Shown in pieces: positions 2,167-54,299 of a DNA stretch of 64,000 bases. This DNA is from Callorhinchus milii (Eukaryota). The notes beneath the pieces are model-generated. The model was not told the DNA's origin. It searched no databases and saw only the letters and a program-made list of their open reading frames with translations. Made by a program: the position numbers and the translations under genes. The stretch lies in contig NW_024704764.1 in NCBI RefSeq assembly GCF_018977255.1, positions 9,300,001 through 9,364,000 of the forward strand. Direction: 5' to 3'. Within the stretch, counting starts at the first letter, position 1, and every line of letters begins with the position of its first letter.

Positions 2167-16646
<14,480 letters not shown>

Positions 16647-18993: not shown

Positions 18994-21900
18994 TCAAATG
19001 TGGGGCGGGGGCTGGGCACAGTCACCGTCTCCGCTCGACTCGCTCTCTATCCTGATCCGGACGAACAGGGTGGCCGGCGAGAGGGAGGTGCCGTCCTTGG
19101 CCAGTAAGTGGACGTGGCGATAGCCTGCGGGAGAAACGGGGAACAGTTAATCGGGTTCCTGGGGCCGGGAGGAACACTGGGGTTGTTATAAACAGAATCC
19201 TCAGCAGCGAGAATGGTCCTGATTGATCGAGTTCTCACGGAAACGTGGAACAGTGTGCGTTGGCGTCAACACGGTATATATTTTGGGGCAACGTGTATAC
19301 CCCCGCACCCCCCCCCACACACGCGTGCGCGCACCTTGCTGGACGCTGGTGAACGGGAGGGTAAACTGCCCGATGAAGTCGTTGCTGCTGGCCGTGTCGT
19401 AATCCTCCACCACAAAGCGGATCAGCGCCAGCTCGGGAACGCTGATCCCGAACCTCAGCACCTCGTTCCACACCGGGTTAAAGCCTGCGATCGGGAACAC
19501 CAACATCAGCCCCGAGCGGTGAGCAGCCACTGCCCCCCTCGGCCACAGCCTCACCACACTGAGCCCCCCCCAGCCTCACCACACTGACCCCCCCCCCCCC
19601 CCCCCCCCACAGCCTCACCACACTGACCCCACCCCCCACAGCCTCACCACACTGACCCCCCACCCCAGCCTCACCACACTGCCCCCCCCCCAGCCTCACC
19701 ACACTGACCCCCCACCCCCCCCACCACAGCCTCACCACACTGACCCCACCCCCCCACAGCCTCGCCACACTGACCCCCCCCCCAGCCTCGCCACACTGAC
19801 CCCCCCCCACAGCCTCACCACACTGACCCCCCCCCCCACAGCCTCACCACACTGACCCCCCCCCCACAGCCTCACCACACTGGCCCCCCTCCACAGCCTC
19901 ACCACACTGACCCCCCCCCACCACAGCCTCACCACACTGACCCCCCCCCCCACAGCCTCACCACACTGAGCCCCCCCCCCACAGCCACGCCACACTGACC
20001 ACCCCCCCCCCCACAGCCTCACCACACTGACCCCCCCCCACAGCCTCACCGCAGCGCGCCCCCAGCCTCGGCCACACTGACCCTCATTCCCTCCCCCCTG
20101 AGATAGTGATACACTCTGTATTTGACACAGCGCCTCATCGCCTCATTGAGACGTCTGAAAAGCACTTCACAGAATATCCTGTAAAGTGTAGTGACTGTGT
20201 TTTTTCGGCCATCATCAAACATCTAAATATCTGCAGCCCCTGAATCCTCCTCCCTAACCCCCCCAATCCAATCCCCCCCGGGGACCTCCCCACCCCTTCG
20301 CTGCTCTCACCATTATTCGTCACGTATCCCGTCTTTCCGGACGCGTTGTCCTCGGGAACACCGTGAACTTCCACCCTCACCTGCGGGTCCACGATGGAGT
20401 TCTTCTTGGTCTTGTTCACTTTGGGCAACTGCTGAGCTGTGATCACCTGTCGCGGAGAGAGAGAGAGAGAGTCCGAGCACTGCAACACCAGCGAACCATC
20501 CCCTCTCCCCCCTCCCCAGACCACACTGAGACACAAAGCAATACTCAGCAACTAGTTATACAGAGCGAGGGAGGGGGCGGTGGGGAGAGGGAGGGGGGGG
20601 CGGTGGGGAGAGGGAGGGGGGGGCGGTGGGGAGAGGGAGGGAGGGAGAGAGGGGGAAAGCCACTGGGCAGAGATGGACAGAAATGACAAGGGGAGAAAAT
20701 GAGGCTGACGCCCAAACACGTGGGGTAAAGTTACATCAATGACCAGCTGTCTCCTGTCCAGCCCGGCCCCCGGCACGGGCTTTGTGGGGCTAAATGCGGA
20801 GTCGCTGCTCCTCATGAAGTCCGGCTTCAGCACGTAACCGCAGCGACCGTTCTGCCGGAACCTTCCCTCGTTCAGGTCCATCTCCGCTCCGCACTTCTGG
20901 AAATTCAGGGAAACTGGAGAGGAGAGAAACAGACGGCGTTAACCCTAAACTCCCGTTTCCCTTCAACGAGCGGAGAATTAAGGTTTTCTTTTAAGATCGC
21001 GCCGTGACCACAGTGTGCGTGTGTGTGTGTGTGCGGCTCCCCTCGTGCAGGGAAGAGTCCCAACTGTCCGGCTACAAACACACAGTCACTGCAGTAAATC
21101 CTGGGAAGTGCTCCTGACGTGATGGGGCGCGATATAATAATAATAATCCTCGCATTTGATATGGCGCGTTTCACGTCGGGAGGACGTCCCGAAGCGCTTC
21201 ACACAACACACTGTAAAGTGAATTGACTGTATATTTGTGGGCGAACGCGGCAGCCAATGGCGCACAGCAATGTCCCACAAAGTGTCGTAGATTGAAAATG
21301 ACCAATTTATTATTGTTTTTGGTTTTGGAGGGATTATTATTAGGCTCTGTGTGGAGTAAGGAAACTTGCCCGAGGTTTCGCCCTCTGCCTGGAATTGAAC
21401 TCAGGTCTCTCACTTGCAAAGCGAGTAACCGAGGTCCGTCCGTCCAGTTCGCCTTCCATCATCCCTGGCCGTGGCTTTGACGGAACCAACGCGAGGCTTA
21501 TTATGGACAGCAATTCCTTAGAGGCTCGCTGGGGTTTTGTGGGGCACCGGGCACCGAACGGAACACGCGGATTGTTTTGACCGGGGGGGGGGGGGGGTGA
21601 GAGGCGAACGTGGAAGCTCCGGCCTCTGGAGTCTCACCGAGGTGACAGCCGGCGTTCCACATGTCCTGGGGGTTGAAGTTGGAGGAGCTGATGCGAGATC
21701 CCAGAGGGTAGACCTTGGACAGCTGCAGGGTGTTATGCCGGACAAAACTGGTCCCTGGGGTGTGGGGGGGGGAGGGGGGGGGAGAGAGAGAGAGAGGAGG
21801 CAGAGATAGAGACAGAGAGAGTGAAATGGATCTCAGACATTGCTTTAACATCCAAACGTCCAAAACCAAACCAAACTTATGGGAGAACGAACCCAAAGGA

Positions 21901-24900
21901 CATTCTTCCTACTCCCACCCCAACCCCTTGACCACCATCACCAGGGCTGATAAATTTTGATACAGAACAGAACGGGTGCTGTTCTCCCTTCTCCATAGAG
22001 CCCCCTCTCAATCCCCAGAGGGGGCTCTCACCACAATCATTGATCAGTTTCTTGGCTTTGGTCTCTGAGAAGGAAGAGGTCTCGCAGGCCACCTGCCGGC
22101 TCCACACAGCCTCGAAGCCCTGGAATCGGGTGTTCCTGCAGTAAACCACCAGCTCAGACATCTCCTGGGTCATTCTCTGCAAAACCAACAGCGGACTTGG
22201 CTTACACAGGGAGCTCAGCTTCCCCCTCACCCCCCACACTTCCCCCTCCCCTCCCTCCACCGTCCCCAACGCAGCTCTCCCCCATCCCCTCCCCTTCTCC
22301 CTCTCCCTTTACCTTCCTGCTTTTCTCTTCATTTGTTACGCTTTCCTCCTCCTCCTCCTCCTCTTCCTCCTCCGGAGTCTCCGAGTCCACGTCCCCCGAG
22401 CCGGTCAGCCTCTTGCCCCTGATCACAATCTTCCCTTTGAGCTCCTGCGGGAATGAGGAGGGACTGACTGACTGACCACAGCCTCGCAGCTCAATGTCAG
22501 TCGCCGCATCAGCGTCAGAGCACGAATGCTCCTCACCCTCACCGCAGACACACGGGAGGACACGGGCCAGGCCGGGCTAGCCTCGGGCCAGGCCGGGCTA
22601 ACCTCAGGCCGGGCCGGGCTAACCTCGGGCCGGGCCGGGCTAACCTCGGGCCGGGCCGGGCTTACCTCGGGTGAGGGCAGCTCCTCGGGCTCTTTGCCGT
22701 CAACTGGGCCGGTGACCAGCAAGTTGCCCAGAATGTTGGTGAAGTGTCGAGCCATCACCATCTGCTGCTCCACCCCACAGTGATTCTCCAGCGACAGGAT
22801 GAGGGGGAAGGGGGACATCTACCACAGACAGCGAGGGGGGGAGAGAGGGGGGGAGAGGGAGAGAATGGAATTGAATGAACTTTACAGCGAAGCATTCAGT
22901 AAGTCACGTCACCAAAATAATAATAATAATATACAATAATCTTTGCATTTGATGTAGAGCCTTATCATGTTGTTGCGACGTCTCAAAGCCTCAAAGTGCT
23001 TCCCAGGATGTGTACTGTAAAGTGTAGTGACTGTGTATTTTGTGGGAGAAACTCGGCGGCCAATCGCGCACGGCAGCGTCCCACCCGCGCACAGTTGTGC
23101 GAGCGACCAAATCGTTATTTTTTGGGGGGGAGGGAAAGCGATCCTCCAATCAACTAACAACCAGGTTCCTACTCACTGCTAATTCAAAATACAAGACGTA
23201 TTGAACAATTTAACCGCGACAGCATTTTGTTTCCCGACAACACGGTGGCCCCGGGAGCCTTACCTTGAAGGCGTAGTCGCGGATGGCTGTGACCACGTCC
23301 TTGAAGAGGATTTTGGAGGTGAGGGTGTGTCCGTGGTACACAACGGGCTCCCCGTTAGCTCCGTCCCAGCAGTCCAGCTCCACACAGCGACAGCCTCGCA
23401 ACAGCGCTCTGACACACACACACACACGCACAGAGACACACACACAGAGACACACACACAGAGACACACACACAGACACACACACAGACACACACACACA
23501 CGCGCAATGTTAGCACACCACCAGCCCCGTCTCACACAACCAAACGGGTTACGAATGAACCTCGTCGCACGGCCTGAGAGTTGATAATAATCCTTGCGTT
23601 TGACACAGAGCCTTATCACGGTATTCAGACGTCTCATAGCGCTTCACGGGACACACCGTAAAGTGGAGTGACTGCGCGCTTTTGTGGGCAAAACCGCGAC
23701 ACAGTGTAAATGTCAGTGGGACGCAGTGCAATACCCCGGGGTTGGGGGAGCGTTGAGGAGGCCTGAAATCAAATGATCCGAAGGCTGTTTTTTCACCCAA
23801 AGTTCTCTCGGACTCCAACCTTCCTCCTACTGATGATATAAGAAGGGTGGGGGGGGTGGAGAGCGGGCGAACGAGTACCTGATATAAGCCTCAGTGCTGC
23901 TGGGTCCTCCCAGCTGGTTCTCCATCAGGTAGGTGTTGTGCGAGGACGAGATGAAGTAGTGGCTGAGGGGCTGCCCCATGTCCTGGTAGATCAGGTCGTG
24001 GCTGTGGTTGAAGATGTCGCCGTCCGGCGAGAGCATGTACATCACAAACCCGTCCCGGGTCAGGAGCTGGTTCTGTTTCGCTGCCGATGGCAAACAGGAT
24101 GAATAGGTTTTTATTAGGGTCTCAAACCGTGAAGGAAAGGGAGCGATTGGGAACTGGAGGAGGCCCTTCAGCCCCTCGAACCTGTTCCCCCGTTCCATTC
24201 CTTCAATCACCCGCCTTCGCCCCATTGGGAGGAACAGCTGCTATGGAGAAGGAGTTGGGGAGTGGGACCGGTTGGTAACTCCTCCAAAGAGCCAGTGCAG
24301 GCACAATGGGCCGAATGGCCTCCTTATGTGCAGTGGGATTCTACGATGCTAGGAAATTGCATACCTTTCTCGTTCAGCTCGTGCCTTTGTATGATGCTCA
24401 GGCCGTTCTCCTCGCTGGGGACCTCCTTCTGCTCCTTCAGGAAGTTGCTGATCTCCCTGACGGCCAGAATCTGGTCCTCGCCCGAGTAATAGTTGAAGAT
24501 CTCCTCCAGCTCCGGCCTCTGCATCAGCAGCTGACAGAACTCCTCGATCTCGTGCTCCTCCAGTTTGCTGCTCTTGGACCTGTCGCACTGCTGTTGACAA
24601 AGACGAGACGAGAAATTGGGAGCAGAGCGTCCCACAAACAGTGGATTGTCTCCATTTTTTTCGTGTGTGTGTATGTGTGACGGGACCACTCATCGACTCA
24701 CCTGGAAGAGGCAGGTGATGTATTCCTCGTTCACCTTCAGGTTGATCATTTTCACCAAGTCCTTGATCTCCTGGAAGCTCATTTCGCTGTCGTTGTCTTT
24801 GTCAGCCTTGTGCAGGTACTGGTGGATCCAGGTGAATGGGACATTAAGGAAATTGCTTAGCAACGATGGGGTTAATAACCGCCGGTAACTATTAATCATA

Positions 24901-27530
24901 ATAATAATAACCCTCGCATTTGATACAGCGACTTATCACGTCTCCAAGCGCTTCACAGGATACACTGTATGGACAACAGTCACTGCACTTCAAAGTAACT
25001 CATCGACTCGAGTCTCTTGCTGAGCAAACGCCTCCGTTCCTACGGGACACAGCGGACAGTTTGGGGCCAGGACATGTCAAGGGACCCCTGGATGGTGGGT
25101 GGGAGGTGAACTAGATGGACCTGGGTCTTGCGTTCGCCCAGTGAATGGCTGAGCGCCGGCCGCTAAAGGATATTGGTGCAGTTTCTCACGCTGGCTCATG
25201 CCGGCCGCTCGGGCCATCAGTTTGTGAAGCCCCCGGACCCAGCGTCTCCTCTCCTCCGGGGTCTCGGCCACCAGGTCCAGGTTAGTGCGGTTGCCCTGGA
25301 ACACGATGGTGAAGCACTGCTGCTCCGAGAAACCCCGACCGTGTTTCCGCATCACCTCCGACTGGTGGCCCTCGCGCACAGACTGGATCTCCATCACCGA
25401 GACTGCGGAGAGAGGGAGGGAGAGGGAGAGAGTGTGAGAAAGAGGGAGAGAGAGAGAGGGGGGGGGTGAGTGTGTGTGAGAGAGTGTGTGTATTATAGAA
25501 AGAGAGTGTGATAGAGAGAACGTCAGAGATGGTATGCGAGAGAGAGAAGAGTGTGATAGAGAGAGTTTGTGTGATGGAGAGAGTGTAACAGCGAGAGAGG
25601 GGAGTAAGAGAGAGAGAGAGAGAATACGTGTGCGTGACAGAAAAACTGAGATAAAGAGTTAGAAAAAGTCAGGGAGAAAAAGAGAGACTAAATGTCCGTC
25701 CTCTTCCCCCACTCCCCCCCCCGGAGACACAGAGTGATCAGAAGTCTGAGGTGTTTGAGAGGGTGAATGGCGAGAAACTATTTCCACCGGCTGTTGAGGC
25801 AGTAAACCGAGAGATCTCGCGTTTAACGCGGCCACCAAAAAAAAAGGGAAGAGGTTAGGAGAGGGGGTTCGCTCGTTAGTCAAAGGTTATCGTTGGGACT
25901 TGGAGCTCATGACCGAAAACGGCGCTGGGAGCTGCCAACAGGGAAAAAAATATCGCAGGGTGTGTCTGTGTGTCTGTGTGTCTGTGTGACTGTGTGTCTG
26001 TGTGTCTGTGTGACTGTGTGTCTGTGTGTCTGTGTGACTGTGTGTCTGTGTGACTGTGTGTCTGTGTGACTGTGTGTCTGTGACTGTGTGTCTGTGTGTC
26101 TGTGTGTCTGTGTGTCTGTGTGTCTGTGTGACTGTGTGTCTGTGACTGTGTGTCTGTGTGTCGTGTGTCTGTGTGTCTGTGTGTCTGTGACTGTGTGTCT
26201 GTGTGTCTGTGTGACTGTGTGACTGTGTGTCTGTGTGTCTGTGTGACTGTGTGTCTGTGTGACTGTGTGTCTGTGTGACTGTGTGTCTGTGTGACTGTGT
26301 GACTGTGTGTCTGTGTGTCTGTGTGACTGTGTGACTGTGTGTCTGTGTGTCTGTGTGACTGTGTGACTGTGTGTCTGTGTGACTGTGTGTCTGTGTGACT
26401 GTGTGTCTGTGACTGTGTGACTGTGTGTCTGTGTGACTGTGTGTCTGTGACTGTGTGTCTGTGTGTCTGTGTGTCGTGTGTCTGTGTGACTGTGTGTCTG
26501 TGTGTCTGTGTGTCTGTGTGTCTGTGTGTCTGTGTGACTGTGTGTCTGTGTGACTGTGTGTCTGTGTGCGTGGCAGTGAGATTAAACGAAAGCCGTTTCC
26601 GAGAGCCAGAGATGGACACAATGGGTTTAATGACTTTGAGAGCTGTGCTGTGTGTTCTGTATTCCATTCCCTGCTCTCTCGCTCTCTCCCTCTCTCTCGA
26701 TTCGATAACAGCTTTAAAGAGAGAACTGGACCGGTATCTGGGGAGGACGGGTTTGCAGGGTAACGGGGAGAAAGCTGGTGATTGGGGTTTAGTGAAAGTG
26801 ACGCTCTGTCAAAGAGCCGCCACGGACTCGATGGGCCGAATGGCCTCCTTCTGTGCCGTAACATTCTATGAATCTCCCCATCGTGTCCGGGCTGGTGCTC
26901 CCTCCCTCCCTCCCCGGTGATACTCACAAGTGGACATGGATGGCTTTCTCCTGGACTTGGACTCACACCAGACAGACAACCCATCTCCCTGCAGCCTCAG
27001 CTGCCTCGGCTTCTTCCACACCTGGGACTTGATTTTCTGTAACTTGCTGCCCTTCAGCATGAACCTCACATCCTCATCCTCCTGGAGCCCTGGACAGACA
27101 CGCGGGGGGGGGGGGGGGGGGGGGGGGGGGGGAGAATGAGGGTAAGGCAGGTCCACATCGCAAAGGCTTGGATATCAAAGCCCCAACTCCCTTCACAGAG
27201 CCAAACCCTACTGTCGAACATTCATACAGAGCCCATCTCCGCTCCAGTCACAGATCATTCAACATTTACCCTTCCAATACCCCATTCCCCCAAACCAACA
27301 CCCACTCCCCAACAACAACAGCAACTTGCACTTATGTCGCGCCCTCCACGCAGGGTAGAGTCTCAGAGCCCTCCCTACCCAACAACCTCCTCCCCCCCAC
27401 ACCTCCCCCAATACCCAACCCATTCCTTACCCACTTGTTTAAGGGCTTTAAAAGCCAGCTTGTTTCTCTCCGGGCTGAGGTCAGGCACCTCACTTTCCAG
27501 CTCACTTCCCTTGGATTTAGTGCCGATCAT
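18994..27530 (-). CDS. PLCD3: Phospholipase C delta-3-like, copy A (PH-EF-X-Y-C2), 15 coding exons, intact ORF
   Basis: Exons (5'->3'): 27530-27431, 27089-26928, 25402-25174, 24831-24702, 24590-24365, 24080-23879, 23408-23264, 22818-22666, 22444-22313, 22176-22032, 21754-21638, 20913-20735, 20446-20311, 19484-19335, 19124-18994. Motifs: [83 protein letters not shown]. Intron 3 is AT-AC. Confidence 0.92.
19540..20080. repeat. Intronic minisatellite (CAGCCTCACCACACTGACCCCC...)n in PLCD3-A intron 13
   Basis: About 25-30 bp units with variable C-runs. The same repeat is at 46265-46790 in copy B. Confidence 0.9.
21132..21428 (-). mobile_element. tRNA-derived SINE copy, head truncated
   Basis: Nearly identical by eye to the copy at 172-501. 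Confidence 0.8.
22561..22665 (-). repeat. 5 x 21 bp tandem repeat built from the exon-8 splice donor (G[T/C][A/T]AGCCCGGCCYGGCCCGAG)
   Basis: Units follow directly from the GAG|GTAAG donor. The counterpart is at 42733-42890. Confidence 0.9.
24832..25173 (-). other. U12-type AT-AC intron (PLCD3-A intron 3)
   Basis: Donor CA|ATATCCTTT (25173-25165), branch site TTCCTTAAT (24851-24843), acceptor CAC|. Splicing restores the conserved L-H-H-W-I-H junction. Confidence 0.93.
25960..26570. repeat. (TGTGTC/TGTGAC)n compound microsatellite
   Basis: About 600 bp of low-complexity repeat in PLCD3-A intron 2. It produces the spurious Thr/His/Gln ORFs. Confidence 0.95.
26690..26875 (+). mobile_element. 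CR1-like LINE 3' end
   Basis: [16 protein letters not shown] translation followed by GATGGGCCGAATGGCCTCCTTCTGTGCCGTAACATTCTATGA, a typical CR1-type tail. Similar tails at about 24200-24350 and 43960-44130. Confidence 0.6.
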
Positions 27531-30500
27531 GGGGTCACCTTAGTGGATGCAACAAGCCTCCAGCTCCCGGGAGCCTGTCTCCTGGGGAGGAAGGTGTGTG
27601 GGAGATCTTCGAGCTGCTGTAGATGGAGTTGGACGGTGTAGTTTGGGGTTACTCCGCCGATCACTGGGATGGAGCTCCGATTCCTTTCAGCTCTGGTTAA
27701 CCTTAGAGCGGGTCTGTCTGTCCGTCCGTCTGTCCGTCCGTCCGTCCGTCTGTCTGTCTTGACCAGTTGGGTTGGGTTTGGATGGGTCGCTCTCTTCTTG
27801 TCTGTATCTGTGCTGGAACTCTTCACTCTGTGTGTGTGTCTCTCGCTGCTCACGGACTCCTCTCACATCACAACTATTTTTTGCTCAGAATCGTTTCACC
27901 GAACACCAGGAATTCGGTCCATGTGACTCTTACACCCGGTTCCCAAATTAAAGGAGGGGGAAAAGTGTTATTTTGCACAAGTGAACAGCAGTTGGAAAAG
28001 CAGAGCAGATCGCCCCAGGCTCCGGTTAACACACGTTCGTTCCTCAATAGCCTGGGCTCCCCAACTTAATTCCATTCCATTGCTCTTCTTGTTGAGTTAA
28101 TGAATGTTTTCATTCATAGTTCAGAGCAGTCAAAGCCTCCTTTTGTGCTCCAGCCTCCCAGTTGCTGAATGTGCCAGATCTGACGTAAAGTTGCCTGTGT
28201 TAACTGCGTTACTGAGTCTCTCTCGTTCTCTCCCTCCCTCCCTCTCCCTCCCTCCCTCCCTCCCTCTGTCTTTCCTGTGTCACCCACTCCTGAACTGACA
28301 GCACATCACGAGCTCAGCTGCCTTTCAGCCCCTTTATGGTACAGGGGGGGGGGAAAAAAAAAGCCAAAGCTCTCGCCAATCACCGGAATAATAGTATTAA
28401 TCCTTGCACTTAACACCGCGTCAGTAACATCAAACATCTCTCTTAAGTACTTTGCAGGGAATTAAGTGTAATGACTGATTTTTTTTGTTGTCCAGGCGAG
28501 TGCGACACGCAGATTTTTACGCAGCAAAAATCTCACTCGCAACCGGCCCTGAAGCGAACGATTAATTCAACCGTGGAATTGCTCAGCCAGGATCCCGGGA
28601 GGAACTCCCTTCTCGTTACCTATTTGTCCCGGGGAATGTTTAACAGGCAAAAAAGGGATTTGGGTTTAACATCTCACCCCCAACCCTCCCCCACCCCACC
28701 TCCGACCCACACCCCACCCCACCCCATCCCAAAACCGTGCTGGAGTGGTGAGCTTCAACCGTGAGCTCAAAATCTCGAACCCAGGCGTGAATAGAGCGAC
28801 AGACCGAGCCAGGCTGAGACCAACTTGAAACCGCCGGAAAACTATCGGCCAAGCTAAGAACGAATTTAAGAACTGTCCCCCCCCCCCCCCAAAAAAAAAA
28901 ATTCTGCGTCAACCTTAAACTTCGCAGCGATGAGCGAAGCTGAGGCTCGGAGACACTTCTGGGATCTGGGGTTCGGTTTGTATCGGGGAACACGACGCCT
29001 CCTCGGGGTGAAGCAGTTGAAAGCCAAGCACCGTTGATGTCTTTGGTCCGCCAGGTGGCGCCTGAGCCACAGGCGGTGGTTGAGAACATATGGACCAAAG
29101 TTGAAAGAGCCTTTGAAGAGACTAATGGGCCTCATGGGCTGAGGGCTCTTGACAGAGACATGTAACGTCTACTCATTAATTAACGCAGCAGCCCTGTAGT
29201 TATATCCCACTGCTCCGTGCCAGACAGTCTCATTAAACTAAAAGATAAACTGTGTTTAAAAAGCAACCACCAAACAGAGATGACGTCAAGACCCAAGTTG
29301 GCAACCGTCTCCAACCCGGACATGTCCGTGACTGGCGTGTCAGAGTGAATGATTCTTATGGAAACCGGTACAATAAAGTCTATAAAGGTACTGTAAGAGA
29401 AGCGCTGATTTAATCTCGCCCGCAAAACATACACAGTGTATCCTGTGAAGCGCTTTGAGACGTCTCAAAGATGCGATAAGATACTGTATCGAATGGAAGG
29501 ATTATTATTATTTATCATAATATTATTATTTATTGTTATTGAGCCACCAGCAGGTCGGCAGGACACTATAATATTATTCAAAGTTACCTGGAACAAATAA
29601 TACTTTGTAACCTGTATAATATACTCTGCAGAAATAATATTATTATTTATTCAAGGTTACAGAGTATTACTTATATTATTCTCTCATGGTGTTATTCAAG
29701 GTTACTCACTCATGGTACTCTGCCCGTCTTAATAACAAGATGATCCGTTACTTAACAACAATAAATAATAATATTGAAGCAGCGTTTTTATTGTATCGCC
29801 TTTATAAGACTTCATTGTCACCTCTGTTTTGAAATAATATTATTTGAGATGTATAAACGTAATTTGTTCCCCTTGTTATTGTTAACTGTGGACAACGTCA
29901 GGGTATCGATTTGTGACTGGTGGGTCAGTGAGAGAGAGAGAGAGAGAAAGAGCTAAGGCTATAATACCGCAGATACAACAACAACAACTTGCATTTATAT
30001 AGCGTCCTTCACGTGGGATAACATCTCGGAGCGTTTGACCGTGGAGGAGTTTGGGCCCGAGCCGGGGGGAGGGAGGTCTCTAGACGGGGGTTTGAAAGGG
30101 AGGAGGGAGGAGGCCAATCCGAAATAAGAGCACTCAGCAGATCAGGCAGCGTCTACGGAGAGAGGAAAGTGGGTCAGTGTTTTGTGGTCGATGACCTCTC
30201 GTCAGAACCGGGGGCTGTTGGCAGTTCCGAAGGAGAAAGAGAGAAGCAGGCGGGGAAAGAAAGACGAAGGGAAAGAGAGAGAGAGAGAGAGAGAGAGAAA
30301 CATTACCGCAGTCTGTCTGTTCCCAGCAGAAAAAATAGGAACAGAAATCTGGACTTGGGAGAGAGAGAAAATGAGAGAGAGAGAGAGCGATGAGGCTTTT
30401 TGTTGTTGAGATGTTGGAGGCCGTCGGTTTAAGGTCATCAAAAAAAAAACAACCGCCGGATTACTTAGAATTTAGGATTTCATTACACAGAGTGATAAAT

Positions 30501-30671
30501 TCACCCGGATTTACGGACCGCAGTTTTACATCACAAATAATCCACAAATCCGCTCCATCTAATAACTCCCACTCCATATTGCTATTACAGTGAGAGAGAG
30601 AGAGAGAGAGAGTGAATGTGAATGAGAGAGTGGGGGGAAGCGAGAGAAGGGGGAGCAGAGAGAGAAAGAAT

Positions 30672-30702
<31 letters not shown>

Positions 30703-32595: not shown

Positions 32596-32767
32596 NNNNN
32601 NNNNNNNNNNNNNNNNNNNNNNNNNNNNNNNNNNNNNNNNNNNNNNNNNNNNNNNNNNNNNNNNNNNNNNNNNNNNNNNNNNNNNNNNNNNNNNNNNNNN
32701 NNNNNNNNNNNNNNNNNNNNNNNNNNNNNNNNNNNNNNNNNNNNNNNNNNNNNNNNNNNNNNNNNNN
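32596..32767. other. Assembly gap (N)
   Basis: Run of N. Other gaps are at 41129-41320, 41436-41731 and 63733-63886. Confidence 1.
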
Positions 32768-36200: not shown

Positions 36201-36382
36201 CTTGATTACGCGCGCGCTCTCTCTCCCTCTCTCTCTTTCTCTGTCGCTCACACACATTCTCTCTCTATCGCACATTCTCTCTCTATCCCACATTCTCTCT
36301 CTATCCCACATTCTCTCTCTATCACACGTTCGCTCTCTCACACACTCTCTGCCTCTCACCTTCTCTCTCTCACACACACTCA

Positions 36383-36414
<32 letters not shown>

Positions 36415-38071: not shown

Positions 38072-38106
<35 letters not shown>

Positions 38107-39070
38107 CTTTTTCAAGTCCCGTCTGAAAACCTTCCCCTTCGACCGCGTTAAGCGCTCTGAGGCTCTGCGGGCGGGGAGGGCGCTGTGTAAATACACGTTG
38201 CCGTTTCGTAGCTGAAGTGGAGCTGCAGCTGAGCTGTGATCTACTAGAATGGCGGAACAGGCTCGAGGGTCTGAATGGCCTCCTCCCCTGTTCCTTGCCA
38301 AGGTATCTTTTAAAGCCCACCTTACTTTGACGGCTCCTTCGAAGGACGGCACCTCTGACAATGCCTCTCTCTCTCTCTCTCTCTCTCTCGTTGAAACGTC
38401 AGCCTTGAGTGTGAGCTCCAGGGAGGGGAGGGCGGGGAGGGGGCACGAGTCCCAGTGATAAGCCGAGTAGTTTTATCTGCTCGTCTTTGCCAACAGCAAT
38501 GCGACAGGTCCAAGAGCAGCAAACTGGAGGAGCACGAGATCGAGGAGTTCTGTCAGCTGCTGATGCAGAGGCCGGAGCTGGAGGAGATCTTCAACTATTA
38601 CTCGGGCGAGGACCAGATTCTGGCCGTCAGGGAGATCAGCAACTTCCTGAAGGAGCAGAAGGAGGTCCCCAGCGAGGAGAACGCCGTGGAACTCATCGAG
38701 AGATTTGAGCTCAATGAGAAAGGTGGTCACCAGCGCTTGTCCCAAACGTCTTCCCCCTCTTTGTGGCCATTTTTCGGGACGTAATAATAACGATAATGAA
38801 TCCCTCGCGTTTGACCCGGCGCCTGATTGCGTCGTCGAGACGTCCTCAAAGCGCTTCACGGGATACACTGTGAACTGTAGTGACTGCGTGTTTTTTTGTG
38901 GGCGAAAACGCGGCAGCCGATTGCGCCCAGCGACGTCCCCGCAAACAAGTCGTGGGTTGAGTGACCGCGTTTTGGTGGTGGGGGGGGGGGTTTTCGTAGG
39001 GATTATTACCTGAAGAGCGATCCGCCAATGGACTAACAACCGGGTTCCCACTCACTGCCGGTAAACGTAA

Positions 39071-39109
<39 letters not shown>

Positions 39110-42100
39110 AGTAAGGAAAGTTGCTGAAGGCTTCACCCTGACCGGGAATCAAACCCGGGTCCTCTCGCTTTGCGAGGCGAGAGCTCTAACCGCTGACCTG
39201 CCTCCAGGTCATCGTTGAGCGCACACTGCCCGGTGCGTTTCACCTGCAAGACACAGAGGCCCTGTGACTCCCGGGTCACAGCCAAATCCCACCAAGTTCT
39301 CCTCTGTTCACTCCCAGGGCAGAGCAGGGCTGGAGATCTTTTCTTTCTGCACCACTGGAGACCAGGCCACGGTGTGTTCCTCGCCCTCTCCCGTCCCCAC
39401 CCTCACCCACACCCCACCCACTCCCCCCCCTCCCACTCCCCCAGCTGAGGGTGACGCGTTATCTGTTAATAAACATTTCACTCCAAAGTGGACGGCGGTT
39501 GGAGAAAGCGTTCAGTGCGATAAATGTGCACGCAGTGTGAACCAGCTCCCTGCACCTCACGCGCTCAGATCTCTCTCCCCCCCCCTCTCTCTTTCTTTCC
39601 GACTGAGTCAAAGGTTTTATTTATAGAGGCGTCAAATGATGTTACCCGTGGACACAGCCCGTCTGTCGGCGCTTGTCCCAGATGGTGAAGTATTTTGGAA
39701 CTTCTTCCATCTCGTATCTCGTCCTATATCTTAACTCAGCTCCGTTCAGGAGGCCATCAAGGACCCTGCGAGTCTATTGGAGAAAGAGAAAGGGAGTTTC
39801 TCTCTCTCTCTCTCCCTGGGGTCCTGGCCGGCAATAATCCTCGCATCGCAGGATTCCTGGAGCTCAGCGGTTAGAGCACTCGCGAGGCGAGTGCGAGACC
39901 TGGGTTCGATTCCCGGCCAGGGCCGAACCTTGGGCAAGTTTCCTGACTCCGCGCGCCTGATAGTAACCCCTCAAGGGGGGAAAAAAAAAAGCAATGAAAC
40001 TGATCACTTCAATCCCCGGCTGCTGCGCGCAGTCGGCTGCCGGGTTTCGCCCACCGATATACGGTCAACTCACTGCCCGGTATATTCGGTGAAGCGCTTT
40101 GAGACGTCGAGAAGAAGTGGAAAAGCGCTGCATCAAAGGCGAGGATTATTATTATTATTATTATTGCTATTTGACACAGCGCCTTATCAGGTCATCGAGA
40201 CGTCTCACAGGAAAACACTGTAAAGTGTAGTGACTGTGTGTTTTTGGAGGCGAAACGCGGCAGGCCAATTGCGCGCAAACAACGTGCCACAAACCGCCAT
40301 GGAGCGAGCGGCCAAATTTATTAGGAGTTAAGGTGTGAATGAATGAACGAACGAACGGACGAACGAACGAACCCGACGCGAGATCGAGGCACCGTCCATG
40401 ATTCTCCGCTCACTGACCATTTGCCATCGGCAGCGAAACAGAACCAGCTCCTGACCCAGGACGGGTTTGTGATGTACATGCTCTCGCCGGACGGCAACAT
40501 CTTCAACCACAGCCATGACCTGATCTACCAGGACATGGGGCAGCCCCTCAGCCACTACTTCATCTCGTCCTCGCACAACACCTACCTGATGGAGGACCAG
40601 CTGGGAGGACCCAGCAGCACTGAGGCTTATATCAGGTACTCGCTCGCCCACTCCGTCCCCCCCCACCACCACCAGCACCCCAACCCCCTGGGCCCCCACC
40701 TACCCCGGACCCCCATCCCCTTGGCCCCCAGCCCCCAGCCCCCCCCGGCCGCCTCTTCCTCAGTGGGAGGAAGGGAGAGAATTTTGGGTGAAAAAAAGAC
40801 CCTTCGAACCATTTGATTTCAGGCCTCCTCGATTTCCCCCCCCCCCCCAACCCCGGGGCGTTAAGAGCTGTGGGACCCTATCCCGCGAGGAGGGAACCTG
40901 TCAGCCCCTCACACAGCTGAGAGGAGAGATCAGTTCATCCATCCGAGACCAGTCGCTTATCGGCTGAAACCTCCCCCACAGCTTTGCCGGATTGTTTTGG
41001 TGAAGTGAACGCTCACTCCCAATGGTGATGTTGGGGACACACGGACCAGGTGCCCCCCCAGTGCCCCCCCACCCAGTGCCCCCCCCCCCCAGCGCCCCCC
41101 TCAAAAAAAAAACTTTTATCGACTTTTTNNNNNNNNNNNNNNNNNNNNNNNNNNNNNNNNNNNNNNNNNNNNNNNNNNNNNNNNNNNNNNNNNNNNNNNN
41201 NNNNNNNNNNNNNNNNNNNNNNNNNNNNNNNNNNNNNNNNNNNNNNNNNNNNNNNNNNNNNNNNNNNNNNNNNNNNNNNNNNNNNNNNNNNNNNNNNNNN
41301 NNNNNNNNNNNNNNNNNNNNGTCTCTGTGGGTGTGTGTCTCTGTGGGTGTGTGTCTCTGTGGGTGTGTGTCTCTGTGGGTGTGTCTCTCTGTGGGTGTGT
41401 CTCTCTGTGGGTGTGTCTCTCTGTGGGTGTGTGTCNNNNNNNNNNNNNNNNNNNNNNNNNNNNNNNNNNNNNNNNNNNNNNNNNNNNNNNNNNNNNNNNN
41501 NNNNNNNNNNNNNNNNNNNNNNNNNNNNNNNNNNNNNNNNNNNNNNNNNNNNNNNNNNNNNNNNNNNNNNNNNNNNNNNNNNNNNNNNNNNNNNNNNNNN
41601 NNNNNNNNNNNNNNNNNNNNNNNNNNNNNNNNNNNNNNNNNNNNNNNNNNNNNNNNNNNNNNNNNNNNNNNNNNNNNNNNNNNNNNNNNNNNNNNNNNNN
41701 NNNNNNNNNNNNNNNNNNNNNNNNNNNNNNNGCTGTCGCTGTGTGGAGCTGGACTGCTGGGACGGAGCTAACGGGGAGCCCGTTGTGTACCACGGACACA
41801 CCCTCACCTCCAAAATCCTCTTCAAGGACGTGGTCACAGCCATCCGCGACTACGCCTTCAAGGTAAGGCTCCCGGGGCTGGAGCGACACTGGCCTCGGGC
41901 CACGTTTGGTGTCGTGCTATAGGAGACTGTTGGCGCGGAGGTCGCTGCGCGCAATTGTCTGCCGCGTTTCACCCCGAAAATACACGGTCACTCCGCTTCG
42001 CCGTGCTTTCCCGTGAAGCGCTTTGCAGAAGTTTCAACGGCGTGACGAGGCGCTGGGTCAAATGCAAGGATTATTATTGATCCCCGCGCCTTATCACGTC

Positions 42101-45100
42101 TTAAATAAATCCCTTAATGTTTAACGGTTAACTTTGTAATGTGATCCGTGGTGTTTTGGGTCCAGGACATGAGCCGGAAGGAACCTGGAAGTGGGTTTCA
42201 ATGGAAATCAGTTCCAGGAATTGTCCTCTTATCACACAACGCCTCAAACCTCTCTCTCTCTCTCTCCCCTTTCCTACATTACACTGCACCTCCCGCCACC
42301 GTTAACCCCCAAACCGCTGACTTCAACATGCGTGACCGTGCGTGTGTCTGTGCGGTGCTGGACCCTACCCCGTGTGAAGGGCGCTATATAAGTGCAAGTT
42401 GTTGTGTGTGTGTGTATGTTTGGGTGCGTCCGTCCACATGTACTGACCTAAGAATGTTTCACTGTAAATTTAATTCAATGTCTATTACCCTGACCCTTCA
42501 CCCTCCCTCTCCCCCACTCCCCCTCGCTCTCCCCTCCTCTCCCCCTCCCACTCTCTCCCCCCCTCGCTGTATGTGGCAGACGTCCCCCTTCCCCCTCATC
42601 CTGTCGCTGGAGAATCACTGTGGGGTGGAGCAGCAGACGGTGATGGCTCGACACTTCACCAACATTCTGGGCAAGTTGTTGGTCACCGGCCCAGTTGATG
42701 ACAAAGAGCCCGAGGAGCTGCCCTCACCCGAGGTAAGCCCGGCCCGGCCCGAGGTTAGCCCGGCCCGGCCCGAGGTTAGCCCGGCCTGGCCCGAGGCTAG
42801 CCCGGCCCGAGGCTAGCCCGGCCCGAGGCTAGCCCGGCCTGGCCCGAGGCTAGCCCGGCCTGGCCCGAGGCTAGCCCGGCCTGGCCCGTGTCCTCCCGTG
42901 TGTCTGCGGTGAGGGTGAGGAGCATTCGTGCTCTGACGCTGATGCGGCGACTGACATTGAGCTGCGAGGCTGTGGTCAGTCAGTCAGTCAGTCAGTCCCT
43001 CCTCATTCCCGCAGGAGCTCAAAGGGAAGATTGTGATAAAGGGGAAGAAGCTGACCGCCTCGGGGGACGTGGACGAGGAGACGGCGGAGGAAGATAATGA
43101 GAAGAAGAAGGTAAGAGGTGGTTGGAGGGTGAGGTTGGGGGGGAGAGAGACAGTCAGAGCTCTGTGGCTCGGTTGAAGGGAGGCGAGAGCGAGCGACTGA
43201 ACGACGGGCTGAGATCTGTCGGACATTCAGGGCGGCGGTCTTTCGAGGCGCGCTGGCAAATGGGTGTCCTGCCGCGAGTCCGTGTCCACGGGAACCGAGG
43301 GCAGAGGGTTTACTGTCTCTGACGGGACGAGAATCCTACGAACCACCCAATCTCACAGCGCAGGAGGAGGCCATTCAGCCCATCGTAACCTGTGCCAGGT
43401 CTTTGAAAGAGTTCCCAACTCGTCCCACACTCCCCCCCCCACCTCCCACCCCCACCTCCCTCCTCCGCTCTTACCCCAATAGCCCTGCTTTTCCCCCCCG
43501 ACCCCCTCCCCCCCGCCGTAAGGACCTCTCCAATTCCCTTTTGAGACGTATCGTCAAATCTGCTTCCGGGCGGAGGGTCCCAGAGCGCAACGACTCCATC
43601 GCTCGGGTTTCGGCCGCACTCAAATACAACGGTTTAAAAAGAAAAGGCAACGCAGTGTATATTGGGGCCACAGACACAGACACAGACACACACACAGACA
43701 CAGACACAGACACATTGATACTTGGGGGTCCCTTGTTCCACCCTGGTCCTGGGGCGCCCCCTGCAGGCCAGGGCTGGCACTGCACGCTGTTCCTCAACCC
43801 CCGTTAGCCCACGTCAAATAGCGCCTCCTGGTGGATACTGGAGGAACTAAACGCCGCTCAGTGACACTCTCATGGACCCCCTAACACTGGACCTGCGCCT
43901 AATACTCTCCGGAATTAGGCAATCAGGATGCCTCCTCCCACCCCCCCCCAGAAAGGGGGAGAGAGAGCGCGCATTCCATTCCAAGTCGATGGATAGACAT
44001 TTGTTGGGTCGGGGTGTTAAGGGATATGGGGCGAAGGCGGGTAATTGGAGTTGAGGCGCAGATCAGCCTTGACCTTATAGAATGGCGGAACAGGCTCGGG
44101 GGCTGAATGTCCTCCTCCTGTTCCTATGTTCCTGGAGCTGGTGCTTGTGTTGTGTTGTGTTGTGTTGCGGAGCCTGGGTACTGATGGGCTTCGCTTGTGT
44201 TTGTTGGCAGGAGGCGAAGCTGTCCCAGGAGCTGTCTGACCTGGTGGTTTATTGCCAAGCCGTCCACTTCCACAGCTTTGCTGCCTCCCGCACCGAGGGC
44301 TCAGTCACGCAAATGTCCTCCTTCGGAGAGAGTAAAGCCAAGAAGCTGATCTCCGAATCGGGTAAGAAACCACAGCGGAAAAGCATTTATTAATAACAAT
44401 AATAATAATAATAATAATAATAACCCTTGCATTTGATAAGAGCGTCTTATCACATCGTTGAAACGTCTCAAAGCGATTCACAGGATATATTGTGAAGTGG
44501 ATTGTCTGCATATTTTTGTGGGCGAAACCCGGCAGCCGGTTAGGCACAGCAGCGTCCCCCGTCAAACCGGTCTGGATCGAGTGATCTAACCTCCCTCTCC
44601 CTCTCCAGGGAAAAGCTTTGTCCAATACAACGCCAGGCAGCTGAGCAGGATTTATCCGTCCGGAACCCGCTTCGATTCTTCGAACTACAATCCTCAGGAC
44701 ATGTGGAATGCCGGCTGTCAGCTCGGTCAGACCCCGTCTCTCGCTCTCGCTCTCGCTCTCGCTCTCTTTCTCTGTCGGATTGATTCCTTGCACACTGTGA
44801 CTCTGTGTGTGTGTGTGTGTGCGTGTAGGTGTGGGGTTGGGAGATGTGGGCTACTGTTTTGTTCTGTGGCTGAATTGAGGGGGGAATTCAGTTAAGGTTC
44901 CATGTTCTAGTGTCTACCAGTTGGCTCTGACTTATTGGGGTTTATTCCCCCCCCCCCCACCCCCCTGATGGGTTGCAACAACAACTTGCACTTACACAGC
45001 GCCATTCACGCAAGGGCAGCGTCTCTGAGTGCTGAGCGGTGGCGGAGCCCGACTCTGAGCGGGGAGGGAGGTTGCTGAAGGCAAAGCTAAAGAGGAAGGT

Positions 45101-47294
45101 CTTGAGCTGTGATCCGAGGCAGGTTATGATTTGTTTGGGGGTTTCCCCCCCTCCTCTCCTCTCTCCTCTCCAGTTTCCCTGAATTTCCAGAAGTGCGGAG
45201 CGGAGATGGACCTGAACGAGGGAAGGTTCCGGCAGAACGGTCGCTGCGGTTACGTGCTGAAGCCGGACTTCATGAGGAGCAGCGACTCCGCATTTAGCCC
45301 ACAAAGCCCGTGCCGGGGGCCGGGCTGGACAGGAGACAGCTGGTCATTGATGTAACTTTACCCCACGTGTTTGGGCGTCAGCCTCATTTTCTCCCCTTGT
45401 CATTTCTGTCCATCTCTGCCCAGTGGCTTTCCCCCCCTCTCCCCCCCCTCCCTCACCCCCCTCCCTCTCCCCACCGCCCCCTCTCTCCCTCACCCCCCCC
45501 TCCCTCTCCCCACCGCCCCCTCCCTCCCTCTCCCCACCGCCCCCTCCCTCCCTCACCCCCCCTCCCTCTCCCCACCGCTCCCTCTCTCCCTCAACCCCTT
45601 CCTCTCCCCACCGCCCCTCCCTCCCTCTCCCCACCGCCCCTCCCTCCCTCACCCCCCTCCCTCTCCCACCGCTCCCTCTCTCCCTCAACCCCCTCCCTCT
45701 CCCCACCGCCCCCTCCCTCCCTCTCCCCACCGCCCCCTCCCTCGCTCTGTATAACTAGTTGCTGAGTATTGCTTTGTGTCTCAGTGTGGTCTGGGGAGGG
45801 GGGAGAGGGGATGGTTCGCTGGTGTTGCAGTGCTCGGACTCTCTCTCTCTCTCTCTCCGCGACAGGTGATCACAGCTCAGCAGTTGCCCAAAGTGAACAA
45901 GACCAAGAAGAACTCCATCGTGGACCCGCAGGTGAGGGTGGAAGTTCACGGTGTTCCCGAGGACAACGCGTCCGGAAAGACGGGATACGTGACGAATAAT
46001 GGTGAGAGCAGCGAAGGGGTGGGGGAGGTCCCCGGGGGGGGGATTGGATTGGGGGGGCTGGGGAGGAGGATTCAGGGGCTGCAGATAATTAGATGTTTTA
46101 TGATGGCCGAAAAAACAGTCACTACACTTTACAGTATGTTTTGTGAAGTGCTTTGGAGACGTCTCAATGAGGCGATGAGGCGCTGTGTCAAATACAGAGT
46201 GTATCACTATCTCAGGGGGGAGGGAATGAGGGTCAGTGTGGCCGAGGCTGGGGGCGCGCTGCGGTGAGGCTGTGGGGGGGGGTCAGTGTGGTGAGGCTGT
46301 GGTGGGGGGGGGTGGGGTCAGTGTGGTGAGGCTGTGGGGTGGGGGGTCAGTGTGGTGAGGCTGTGGGGGTCAGTGTGGTGAGGCTGGGGGGGGGGTCAGT
46401 GTGGTGAGGCTGTGGGGGGGGGGGTCAGTGTGGTGAGGCTGTGGTGGGGGGGGTGGGGTCAGTGTGGTGAGGCTGTGGGGGTCAGTGTGGTGAGGCTGGG
46501 GGGGTCAGTGTGGTGAGGCTGTGGGGGGTGGGGGGGGTCAGTGTGGTGAGCCTGTGGTGGGGGGGTCAGTGTGGTGAGCCTGTGGGGGGGGGGGGGCTCA
46601 GTGTGGTGAGGCTGGGGGGGGGTCAGTGTGGTGAGGCTGTGGGGGGGGGGGGTCAGTGTGGTGAGGCTGTGGGGTGGGGGGGTCAGTGTGGTGAGGCTGT
46701 GGGGGGGGGGGGGGTCAGTGTGGTGAGGCTGTGGGGTGGGGGCTCAGTGTGGTGAGGCTGGGGGGGGTCAGTGTGGTGAGGCTGTGGCCGAGGGGGGCAG
46801 TGGCTGCTCACCGCTCGGGGCTGATGTTGGTGTTCCCGATCGCAGGCTTTAACCCGGTGTGGAACGAGGTGCTGAGGTTCGGGATCAGCGTTCCCGAGCT
46901 GGCGCTGATCCGCTTTGTGGTGGAGGATTACGACACGGCCAGCAGCAACGACTTCATCGGGCAGTTTACCCTCCCGTTCACCAGCGTCCAGCAAGGTGCG
47001 CGCACGCGTGTGTGGGGGGGGGGCGGGGGGTATACACGTTGCCCCAAAATATATACCGTGTTGACGCCAACGCACACTGTTCCACGTTTCCGTGAGAACT
47101 CGATCAATCAGGACCATTCTCGCTGCTGAGGATTCTGTTTATAACAACCCCAGTGTTCCTCCCGGCCCCAGGAACCCGATTAACTGTTCCCCGTTTCTCC
47201 CGCAGGCTATCGCCACGTCCACTTACTGGCCAAGGACGGCACCTCCCTCTCGCCGGCCACCCTGTTCGTCCGGATCAGGATTAAGAGCGAGTAG
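33204..47294 (+). CDS. PLCD3: Phospholipase C delta-3-like, copy B, 15 coding exons; apparent 1-nt frameshift in exon 12
   Basis: Exons 33204-33270 (putative first, [22 protein letters not shown]), 35456-35617, 36448-36676, 37348-37477, 38497-38722, 40434-40635, about 41718 (in gap)-41862, 42580-42732, 43015-43110, 44211-44361, 44609-44725, 45174-45351, 45866-46001, 46846-46995, 47206-47294. Exon lengths match copy A except exons 1, 9, 10, 12 and 15. Catalytic His/Glu/Asp motifs are intact. Confidence 0.88.
33271..33725. repeat. G-rich (GGGT/GAGA) low-complexity tract
   Basis: Purine/GT-rich repeat directly after the putative exon-1 donor of copy B. Confidence 0.9.
34290..34655 (-). mobile_element. 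L2-like LINE 3' fragment
   Basis: Minus-strand ...[12 protein letters not shown]...[13 protein letters not shown], an L2 ORF2 C-terminal signature. Confidence 0.55.
34660..35070. repeat. About 60-bp G-rich minisatellite (GCGGGGTATAGTGTGTGTGATAGGGAGCCGGTGGGGCCTGGCGAGGG...)
   Basis: About 6-7 tandem units abutting the L2 fragment. Confidence 0.9.
35686..36042 (+). mobile_element. tRNA-derived SINE copy
   Basis: TAGTGGTTCGAGCCCTCGCCTCGCAAGCGAGAGGACCCGGGTTCGATTCCCGG head plus the family body and tail. Confidence 0.75.
36677..37347 (+). other. U12-type AT-AC intron (PLCD3-B intron 3)
   Basis: Donor ATATCCTTT at 36677-36685, branch site ACCTTAAC at about 37331-37338, acceptor GCAC| at 37347. Confidence 0.93.
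37684..38003 (-). mobile_element. tRNA-derived SINE, near full-length
   Basis: Nearly identical by eye to the copy at 172-501, with a long (ATT)n tail. Confidence 0.82.
38782..39200 (-). mobile_element. tRNA-derived SINE copy with internal (CA)n
   Basis: Family tail, body and tRNA-like head. Another copy is at about 39855-40165 (+). Confidence 0.7.
42733..42890 (+). repeat. 8-unit splice-donor-derived tandem repeat (21/16 bp units)
   Basis: GTAAGCCCGGCCCGGCCCGAG, GTTAG... x2, GCTAG... x5. Confidence 0.9.
46265..46790. repeat. Intronic minisatellite (GGGGTCAGTGTGGTGAGGCTG...)n in PLCD3-B intron 13
   Basis: Reverse complement of the copy-A array at 19540-20080. Confidence 0.9.
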
Positions 47295-48179
47295 ACCGGA
47301 GACGGTGACTGAGTCACTGCGGTCGGGTGGAGACCTGGGTGCACAGGTCTATCGTGCTGGGAGGCTGAGGTCCTGCCTCAGGCACTGGCCTGGGATGAAG
47401 CTCGGATTTTCAGACACAGGAGAAGCTTTCCGTCCCTGAATTCGGCTCCAGTTGAGCCTCAAGAGCCGGGTCGTAACCCAGAATCCGTCCCAACTCCCAG
47501 CAGATCTGAAGCTTTTTAGACTTTTAATCCGCGAAACATTTTTATATCCACAGACATCGAATGTCCCAACTTTTTAAGCGCGCGCGTGTGTGTATGTGGG
47601 GGGGGATGGGGGAGGGAGGGTCACTTCTCGTCCCGTCAAACTTTTACATCACAGAAAGAAACCATTTCAGCCCCATTGAAGCTCCCATCTGCTCGCGCTC
47701 TTTACCCCACACCCCTTATTTTATGTATTTAATCTATTTATCTAATTCCCCGCTGAAAGCTATTATGGTTTTGGCCGAGTGTTCTGAGGCCCTAATCACC
47801 TTCCCTGAAGGAAACGCCTACAAATACCCTTTGCCTTATTCTGTTTGGGTAACGACAACGCGCACTTGTTTTGTTGCATCCGTTCGTGCACCTTAGTAAA
47901 GTTTCGGCTCGAACCGCGTGGGCGCAGGAACCCCCATCACAGACGCGGGCTCGGTACTCGGTAACGAGTTGGTGTTTTGAGTCTGTAATTTAGGGGAAGA
48001 AACTTCGCCTTTTTTGATTGGAATAACGTAGAATTATTGCGCTAAGTCCGTGAGGTGACGAAGCCAATGTCCTATCTCTCCTCGAGCGAGACTCGCGCGT
48101 GTTTTTTTTTGTGTGTGTGTGTGTGCGTGCGTGCGCGTGCGGTACGCAATCTTGTGCGGTTGAGCACGTTTGCCATATA

Positions 48180-48944: not shown

Positions 48945-48950
<6 letters not shown>
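48180..48950 (+). promoter_or_regulatory. CpG-island promoter / 5' region of RNF113A
   Basis: CpG-rich, with CCGGAA ETS-like motifs (about 48312, 48395) and a YY1-like CAAGATGGCG overlapping the start codon. Confidence 0.55.

Positions 48951-54299
<5,349 letters not shown>

Follow-up and report, generated by a model that had tools for sequence, protein, structure and literature searches.

How can two gene copies that keep overwriting each other stay different in the same few exons? The question arises from a stretch of 64,000 nucleotides of the Callorhinchus milii genome (NCBI RefSeq assembly GCF_018977255.1, contig NW_024704764.1, positions 9,300,001 to 9,364,000 of the forward strand; hereafter the window), which holds two PLCD3 genes, A and B. 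The initial annotation of the window described them as head-to-head paralogs of 15 exons about 5.7 kb apart, and this layout holds: the start codons lie 5,673 bases apart, the exon phases match, and the splice sites are proper in both genes. Comparison of the two copies, in Callorhinchus and across cartilaginous fishes, points to recurring gene conversion and to a small core of exons that it has spared.

Mosaic of Shared and Divergent Exons

DNA identity between A and B is 100% in exons 12–14 and over the readable bases of exon 7 (131/131), and reaches 98% in exon 3, 93% in exon 5, 98% in exon 6, 96% in exon 8, and 97% in exon 15. Exons 1, 2, 4, 10, and 11 stand at 70–74%, and exon 9 is mixed. 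The fraction of synonymous sites that differ is 4.0% in exons 3, 5–8, and 12–15 versus 53.5% in exons 1, 2, 4, 10, and 11; for non-synonymous sites the corresponding figures are 1.6% and 26.9%. Likeness extends into intron DNA. The first 234 bases of intron 3 agree at 232 positions, intron 14 gives 209 matches with zero mismatches, the 3′ part of intron 8 gives 118 with zero, and the 5′ part of intron 13 gives 230 matches with 9 mismatches; the non-repeat parts of intron 12 are common to both arms, as are the tandem arrays of introns 8, 12, and 13, with unequal copy numbers. The near-identical blocks claimed at the outset, introns included, are thus confirmed at 93–100% for shared exons and 96–100% for intron parts. 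For introns 1, 4, 5, 9, 10, and 11 there is nothing beyond brief local alignments scoring 24–43, the majority of them at splice sites, and introns 2, 6, and 7 have simple repeats or pieces of short interspersed elements (SINEs) in common.

Because protein constraint cannot make introns and synonymous sites identical, their agreement points to recent copying of DNA between the arms. The identity is also clustered beyond chance, since the longest identical run, 90 of 256 four-fold sites (19 differences), was matched in only 320 of 100,000 shuffles. In exons 5, 6, 7, and 8, the tracts end roughly 15–30 bases from the exon borders. Switch points fall inside exon 5, whose last 39 bases lie beyond the tract, and inside exon 9, after 35 bases; these positions and the peptides quoted for them are as originally reported. 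Another switch lies near the stop codon, where 4 differences in 14 bases have identical flanks and identity returns for 17 bases. There, A exon 15 (19050-18994) has lost the stop codon of B and of the aligned elasmobranch copies and gained a 13-residue tail.

No gradient of identity with distance from the center was found, the outermost block being the most alike. Third-position GC in A and B (0.85/0.84 for shared exons, 0.78/0.78 for divergent ones, and 0.82/0.78 for exons 4, 10, and 11) differs too little to make a case for GC-biased conversion. We also observed that the exon 3 block ends (24940 in A, 36912 in B) inside a SINE remnant, and that a SINE piece in the shared part of intron 13, from a family scattered across the window, is 96% identical between the arms.

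Two Tree Topologies in Cartilaginous Fishes

A-type and B-type proteins were retrieved in 21 elasmobranch species, giving with Callorhinchus 22 pairs from 11 orders, which are not independent data points; 10–12 of the pairs were used for trees. Counts out of 21 or 22 retain Chiloscyllium plagiosum and Mustelus, whose pairs lie on different contigs, and the contig-less Pristiophorus; they exclude a second Chiloscyllium punctatum model and an unpaired Carcharodon B. In 18 of the 21 elasmobranch pairs, the members sit on contigs of equal size, and accession numbers of A and B are consecutive in Heterodontus, Heptranchias, and one Scyliorhinus; close linkage, plain in the window, may hold in these species too.

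Exons 4, 10, and 11 (130 columns, 12 pairs, and 7 outgroups; 10 pairs in the mixture-model tree) place Callorhinchus A with all elasmobranch A in one clade (support 100/99), inside a chondrichthyan clade (87/81). A clade uniting Callorhinchus A and B is rejected at p=0.0010, and at p=0.0014 under the mixture model. Exons 6–8 and 13–15 (291 columns) instead pair A with B within six species (Callorhinchus, Heptranchias, Pristiophorus, Heterodontus, Cetorhinus, and Scyliorhinus), each with bootstrap 96–100, and intermix A and B within carpet sharks; here, grouping all A sequences together is rejected at p=3e-5, and grouping those of elasmobranchs alone at p=3e-7. Pairwise comparison agrees. Over exons 6, 7, 8, and 13, the own paralog is more alike than all orthologs of the same type from other orders in 13 of 22 pairs; over exons 4, 10, and 11 this is so in 0 of 22. 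The nine misses are three skates, an electric ray, two catsharks, two rays (narrowly), and one doubtful pair. Typing by exon 4 agrees with typing by exons 10–11 in every protein.

Since one set of exons groups by paralog and the other by species, the duplication predates the chimaera/shark split, dated at ~400 million years ago in PMC12344233, and conversion has recurred since. The initial annotation had proposed just such an old duplication with continuing conversion and had named per-exon trees as the test; the two topologies obtained are incompatible with each other. Recurring conversion between A and B, taken by itself, we hold to be very nearly certain. The trees further show that the A type arose once, ahead of the split; an origin older still, with A lost in bony fish, would also be compatible with them.

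A Protected Core

Which exons have stayed apart? In each of the 22 species pairs, exons 4, 10, and 11 keep their paralog-specific form. Four parts of the protein had been proposed as protected, and the EF-hand (exon 4) and the Y box (exons 10–11) do keep apart. The PH lipid-binding loop of exon 2 may have been either protected or converted, since trees reject neither grouping and only 1 diagnostic site occurs. In the X–Y linker of exon 9, A and B of Callorhinchus resemble each other and differ jointly from elasmobranchs, with 21 species sites versus 1 paralog site.

Other escapes vary by lineage. Exon 5 is paralog-specific in 21/21 elasmobranch pairs and shared in Callorhinchus, where A exon 5 combines a B-type body with a tail that carries the A-type Leu motif, so that B likely overwrote A. 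Exons 3 and 12, wholly shared in Callorhinchus, are partly paralog-specific in elasmobranchs. The divergence first described for exons 1–2, 4, and the 3′ end of exon 9 through exon 11 is real in Callorhinchus, but does not extend to shark exon 1, which is homogenized in 11 of the 21 elasmobranch pairs, all of them sharks (93–100% identity), and divergent in rays and the chimaera. We conclude from these comparisons that EF-hand exon 4 and Y-box exons 10–11 make up the core that stays protected across lineages, the other escapes being lineage-specific.

As a separate observation, exon 1 of those 11 sharks is identical or nearly so between paralogs (e.g., P0011/P0017 and P0184/P0186) despite poor conservation; promoter-side conversion and a shared first exon are candidate explanations.

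Active-Site Residues

We aligned A to rat PLC-delta1 (PDB 1DJG, chain offset 132) and took catalytic and substrate residues from PMC12195575 and PMC11174929. Exons 10–11 make up the half of the catalytic barrel contributed by the Y box, and the counterparts of Ser522, Arg549, and Tyr551 all lie there. The initial annotation spoke of divergent regulatory exons; the divergence is there, but by this alignment exons 10–11 are catalytic and not just regulatory. According to the review PMC12195575, Lys438, Lys440, Ser522, and Arg549 contact the 4- and 5-phosphates. A keeps the equivalents of His311, Glu341, Asp343, His356, Glu390, Lys440, Ser522, and Tyr551, and departs conservatively at two sites, where Lys replaces Arg549 and Arg replaces Lys438; both residues are canonical in B. 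Arg at the Lys438 site occurs in Callorhinchus A alone, in the first codon past the end of the exon 9 tract, and as a single case may be due to chance.

The change at the Arg549 site is fixed by type. Lys is found in 21/21 elasmobranch A proteins and in Callorhinchus A (22/22 species), and Arg in 21/21 elasmobranch B proteins and 9/9 outgroups. Among 189 proteins, mostly PLCD3, 34 have Lys (all chondrichthyan A) and 137 Arg, and 18 gave no pattern match, 3 of those having Arg. A word-based search with 44 candidates returned no A-type Y box outside chondrichthyans, 15 of its 16 matches being chondrichthyan A and the other carrying Arg. Nine diagnostic sites are retained by elasmobranchs and by both copies of Callorhinchus, and A has the derived state at eight of them; in the tree of exons 4, 10, and 11 the stem branch of A measures 0.27 versus 0.05 for B.

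Selection and Passive Escape as Possible Causes

The account we favor begins with a duplication of PLCD3 ahead of the divergence of chimaeras from sharks and rays, after which non-allelic gene conversion would have copied patches about the size of an exon back and forth between the two genes. Judging from general recombination biology, a break in one arm would be repaired from the other arm without crossover, and tracts would stop where intron homology has been lost. A crossover between inverted arms would flip the middle and delete neither copy, which may underlie the long life of the pair. Copy A would have taken on a new setting early, as its long stem and the Lys for Arg549 suggest, and selection would purge converted versions of exons 4, 10, and 11. 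The outcome would be two enzymes on one scaffold, with calcium and head-group handling tuned differently. To this whole account, from pre-split duplication to selection on the three exons, we give somewhat better than even chances. We also weighed a crossover that inverted the inner segment and then became fixed, and set it aside, as A-type exon 4 with B-type exons 10–11 was seen in no species.

Selection is the likely cause of the protected exons, as far as sequences can tell. These exons are conserved between elasmobranch orders (0.87 for exon 4, 0.90 for exon 11, and 0.83 for exon 10), with the converted exons 8, 13, 14, and 15 at 0.82–0.88, and the least conserved exon, exon 1 (0.56), has yet been homogenized in sharks. 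A-type exon 4 is coupled to A-type exons 10–11 in every pair, and A exon 4 has converted DNA close by on both sides, the intron 3 block at 108 bases and exon 5 at 111.

Several points weigh against the favored account. Species beyond Callorhinchus were compared as proteins with exon borders assumed, so that synonymous divergence, introns, and orientation refer to Callorhinchus. In the tree of exons 4, 10, and 11, the B clade is weak (80/37), and exon 10 or exon 11 taken singly fails to reject a Callorhinchus A+B clade (p=0.15 and 0.17), with p=0.026 for exon 4. A evolves significantly faster in 7/7 tests with Latimeria as outgroup, 2/7 with Acipenser, and 0/7 with the contig-6 PLC-delta paralog, these tests not being independent. 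The exchange of Arg for Lys is conservative, and a 1996 mutagenesis paper reportedly found little effect of R549K in human PLC-delta1; if so, Lys would serve to recognize the A pocket without acting as a switch. The divergent exons of Callorhinchus are the shortest islands between unalignable introns (67–162 bases). Finally, skates and the electric ray have largely ceased homogenizing (identity 0.86–0.87, below that of orthologs), and therefore exons of this pair do escape passively in some lineages.

These last points feed the principal rival, in which the duplication is equally old and conversion equally real, but exons 4, 10, and 11 dropped out of conversion by chance after the flanking introns and the exons had drifted below the identity that a tract needs to begin, and purifying selection then froze the two versions; A and B would be near-equivalent enzymes or differ in expression only. 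Short islands in Callorhinchus, tracts that end close to the borders of exons 5–8, and a rate excess that varies with the outgroup are all in keeping with such passive escape. Escape is also lineage-dependent, touching exon 1 in rays and the chimaera, exons 5 and 12 in elasmobranchs, and much of the gene in skates, and PMC3924837 describes yeast duplicates in which conversion was confined to coding DNA once introns and flanks had diverged. Exon length, however, ranks the elasmobranch exons wrongly if sizes match those of Callorhinchus: exon 5 (226 bases) is paralog-specific in 21/21 pairs, whereas exons 8, 13, and 14 (136–153 bases) are homogenized in most sharks. Constraint likewise fails to predict which exons escape, the overwritten exon 5 suggests that deep divergence is no absolute barrier, and the changes are biased to A and placed around the phosphate pocket. 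Passive escape of the three exons is a serious possibility that we nonetheless consider on the unlikely side.

Integrity of Copy B and of the Assembly

B exon 12 has 178 bases versus 179 in A, a difference absent from the initial annotation, which puts a frameshift ahead of the C2 domain in the assembly. If the loss were real, B would be a decaying gene with a truncated C2 domain, a young pseudogene kept alike by conversion. Besides the frameshift in the window sequence itself, protein searches gave no full-length B from the current annotation, only an older model lacking exons 12–13 and a fragment. Positions 41740-45425 were compared with four sequencing runs in the form of contigs; contigs can conceal minor or rare variants, and within a shared block they may combine reads of both genes. 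The extra C is present at full depth in 4/4 runs, and two DNA-like contigs that carry it start in intron 11, which is specific to B. The frameshift is thus likely an assembly slip.

B is spliced: two RNA-like runs, each from a different study, hold contigs that join its specific exons 9-10-11 without introns; the RNA nature of these runs is presumed from the spliced contigs. Contig depth in these runs differs between B-only and shared exons, and such depths cannot rank expression. Exon 7 had zero cover in the four runs and is uninformative. The other B exons all have open reading frames and correct splice signals, and at diagnostic sites the B type is nearest to bony-vertebrate PLCD3. Against this record, decay of B is improbable.

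Sites 42581 and 42699 in B exon 8 show an A-like state in the older gene model or in other samples. At 42699 the A-like base occurs in three runs, and the older model (P0004) has the A residue at the start of exon 8. These states may be conversion polymorphisms or errors.

Two further explanations fare worse. If every lineage had duplicated the gene recently and on its own, and the same three exons had then changed fast in parallel, the result would be exactly the tree given by the shared exons alone, but the same A residues would have to arise repeatedly (9 sites kept across chimaera and elasmobranchs), the tree of exons 4, 10, and 11 rejects this history, and the synonymous sites of these exons are near saturation; we consider it highly implausible. 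An artefact that pasted one sequence at two loci might be suspected from the full identity of exons 12–14, the ability of long-read polishing to level near-identical copies, and the fact that no listed contig spans a whole gene, but is scarcely credible given that DNA-like contigs of two other samples cross from unique to shared B DNA (42862-43181, 44947-45393, and 44955-45425), that older gene models hold the same copy-specific residues within shared exons 3 and 6, and that the same mosaic recurs in separate assemblies of other species, with 2–5% differences within shared blocks.

The Surrounding Window

The features of the pair are collected in Table 1. The spliced translation of A equals NCBI model P0130 in 778/778 residues, and P0004 equals B over exons 1–11 except for one residue. 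A Pfam scan finds the order PH, EF-hand, X, Y, C2 in A (P0130) and B (P0004, its PH match lying just below the Pfam cut-off). The best protein matches to A and B carry the names PLCD3 or PLCD3-like, and in trees rooted on one contig-6 paralog the two group with bony-vertebrate PLCD3; together with the NMT neighbor described below, this makes them orthologs of PLCD3 rather than PLCD1/4. An X-box query recovered the A and B copies at 100% and 95%, with the next match at 59% on contig 6, and found no third PLCD3 copy among 15 candidates scored. Between the genes, the spacer shows no arm-to-arm similarity beyond repeats.

Intron 3, which the initial annotation passed over, is of the AT-AC (U12) type in A (25173-24832), in B (36677-37347), and in the contig-6 PLC-delta paralog; its 5′ splice site lies inside the conversion block, and its branch point and 3′ end are copy-specific.

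Beside A lies an NMT gene with exons at 11120-12780 on the + strand, an arrangement that presumably mirrors the human linkage of NMT1 and PLCD3. On the other side are two genes that we take, from their peptides, to be RNF113A-like (48900-54300, +) and STRADA-like (55800-58800, −). A Cys/His-rich frame at 50111-50581 (+), within an intron of the RNF113A-like gene, resembles what we take to be the start of a DIRS-type retrotransposon protein.

Table 1. Features of the PLCD3 pair and its surroundings, in window coordinates
Feature	Position	Strand	Remarks
Gene A, PLCD3 type A	18994..27530	-	15 exons, 778 residues; intact gene, its tail facing that of NMT1
Gene B, PLCD3 type B	33204..47294	+	15 exons, 743 residues if the one-base gap in exon 12 is bridged
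Inter-gene spacer	27531..33203	.	5,673 bases between start codons; presumed site of both promoters
A shared block	24940..25470	-	Exon 3, AT-AC 5′ splice site, 234 bases of intron 3
B partner of exon 3 block	36380..36912	+	
A exon 4	24702..24831	-	First EF-hand pair; paralog-specific in all species examined
B exon 4	37348..37477	+	Paralog-specific
A exon 5	24365..24590	-	Body equals B and elasmobranch B type; last 39 bases A type
B exon 5	38497..38722	+	
A exon 6	23879..24080	-	X box start; shared island, 4 differences in 202 bases
B exon 6	40434..40635	+	Shared island
A exon 7	23264..23408	-	X box; shared island; readable B exon 7 (ends 41862) identical
A shared block	22420..22835	-	Exon 8, intron 8, exon 9 start
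B partner of exon 8–9 block	42560..43040	+	
A exons 10 and 11	21638..22176	-	Exon 10 (22176-22032), exon 11 (21754-21638); Y box, paralog-specific, Lys555 at Arg549 site
B exons 10 and 11	44211..44725	+	Exon 10 (44211-44361), exon 11 (44609-44725); Y box, paralog-specific, Arg at 549 site
A shared block	19019..20927	-	Exons 12–15 and introns (Y box end, C2 domain)
B partner of exon 12–15 block	45160..47311	+	
B C-run	45297..45300	+	One base shorter than in A; shifts B frame in assembly
NMT neighbor	2160-12780	+	Pfam match

Relation to Known Systems and Outlook

Theory holds that duplicates under conversion can stay different only given strong selection or lost homology. Going by three features of tree and sequence, the PLCD3 pair would count as a case of conversion with a "peak of divergence". 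In open-access full text, outside supplements, we found no relevant publication on PLCD3 gene conversion or on PLCD3 duplication in cartilaginous fish. PMC3924837 gives worked examples of such duplicates 30–200 million years old, among them the red and green opsins of human and macaque, in which an important exon groups by paralog, as here, and introns group by species. The opsin duplication is there placed at 30–40 million years, with most introns still converting; the PLCD3 pair is about ten times older, most of its introns are unalignable, and conversion is left as exon-sized islands.

A close parallel is ATP1A1 R/S of Leptodactylus (10.1101/2020.08.04.234435), which likewise combines an ancestral duplication, homogenization within species, and trans-specific amino-acid differences that are kept. 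There the genes are tandem in the same orientation within one genus, 12 scattered sites differ, and function was shown by protein engineering, whereas the PLCD3 copies are inverted, span a whole vertebrate class, differ by ~30% over whole exons, and are known from sequence. LeftyA/LeftyB also form a two-gene cluster, present in all chondrichthyans, whose tree suggests conversion in separate lineages; PMC12344233, which names oxytocin/vasotocin as a known case, leaves independent duplications versus conversion undecided for Lefty, whereas for PLCD3 the question is settled, as the protected exons give the duplication its date and conversion is recent at the level of species. Looser parallels are the subject of PMC8476164 and PMC7408487. 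In domain makeup, A and B resemble rat PLC-delta1 (1DJG) and vertebrate PLCD3, with PH, EF-hand, X, Y, and C2 domains, and at position 549 the sampled bony vertebrates have Arg, versus Lys in the chondrichthyan A type.

Together, these results describe a PLCD3 pair of ~400 million years that is still converting in the chimaera and sharks and dropping out in skates. Whole-gene trees will misdate its duplication, and B may be mis-annotated owing to a one-base slip. With at least 20 sequenced species, selection and passive escape can be tested against each other exon by exon. A second chondrichthyan PLC-delta3 type is indicated, with a fixed change at a substrate-binding residue. More tentatively, and in our view with the chances leaning against it, A may be an extra chondrichthyan PLC-delta isoform whose first EF-hand pair and phosphate pocket, with Lys at the Arg549 site, are co-adapted and have been defended by selection against repeated gene conversion for ~400 million years. 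If such a module exists, a different head-group preference or calcium setting would be expected, and the 22 species would amount to a natural exon-swap experiment.

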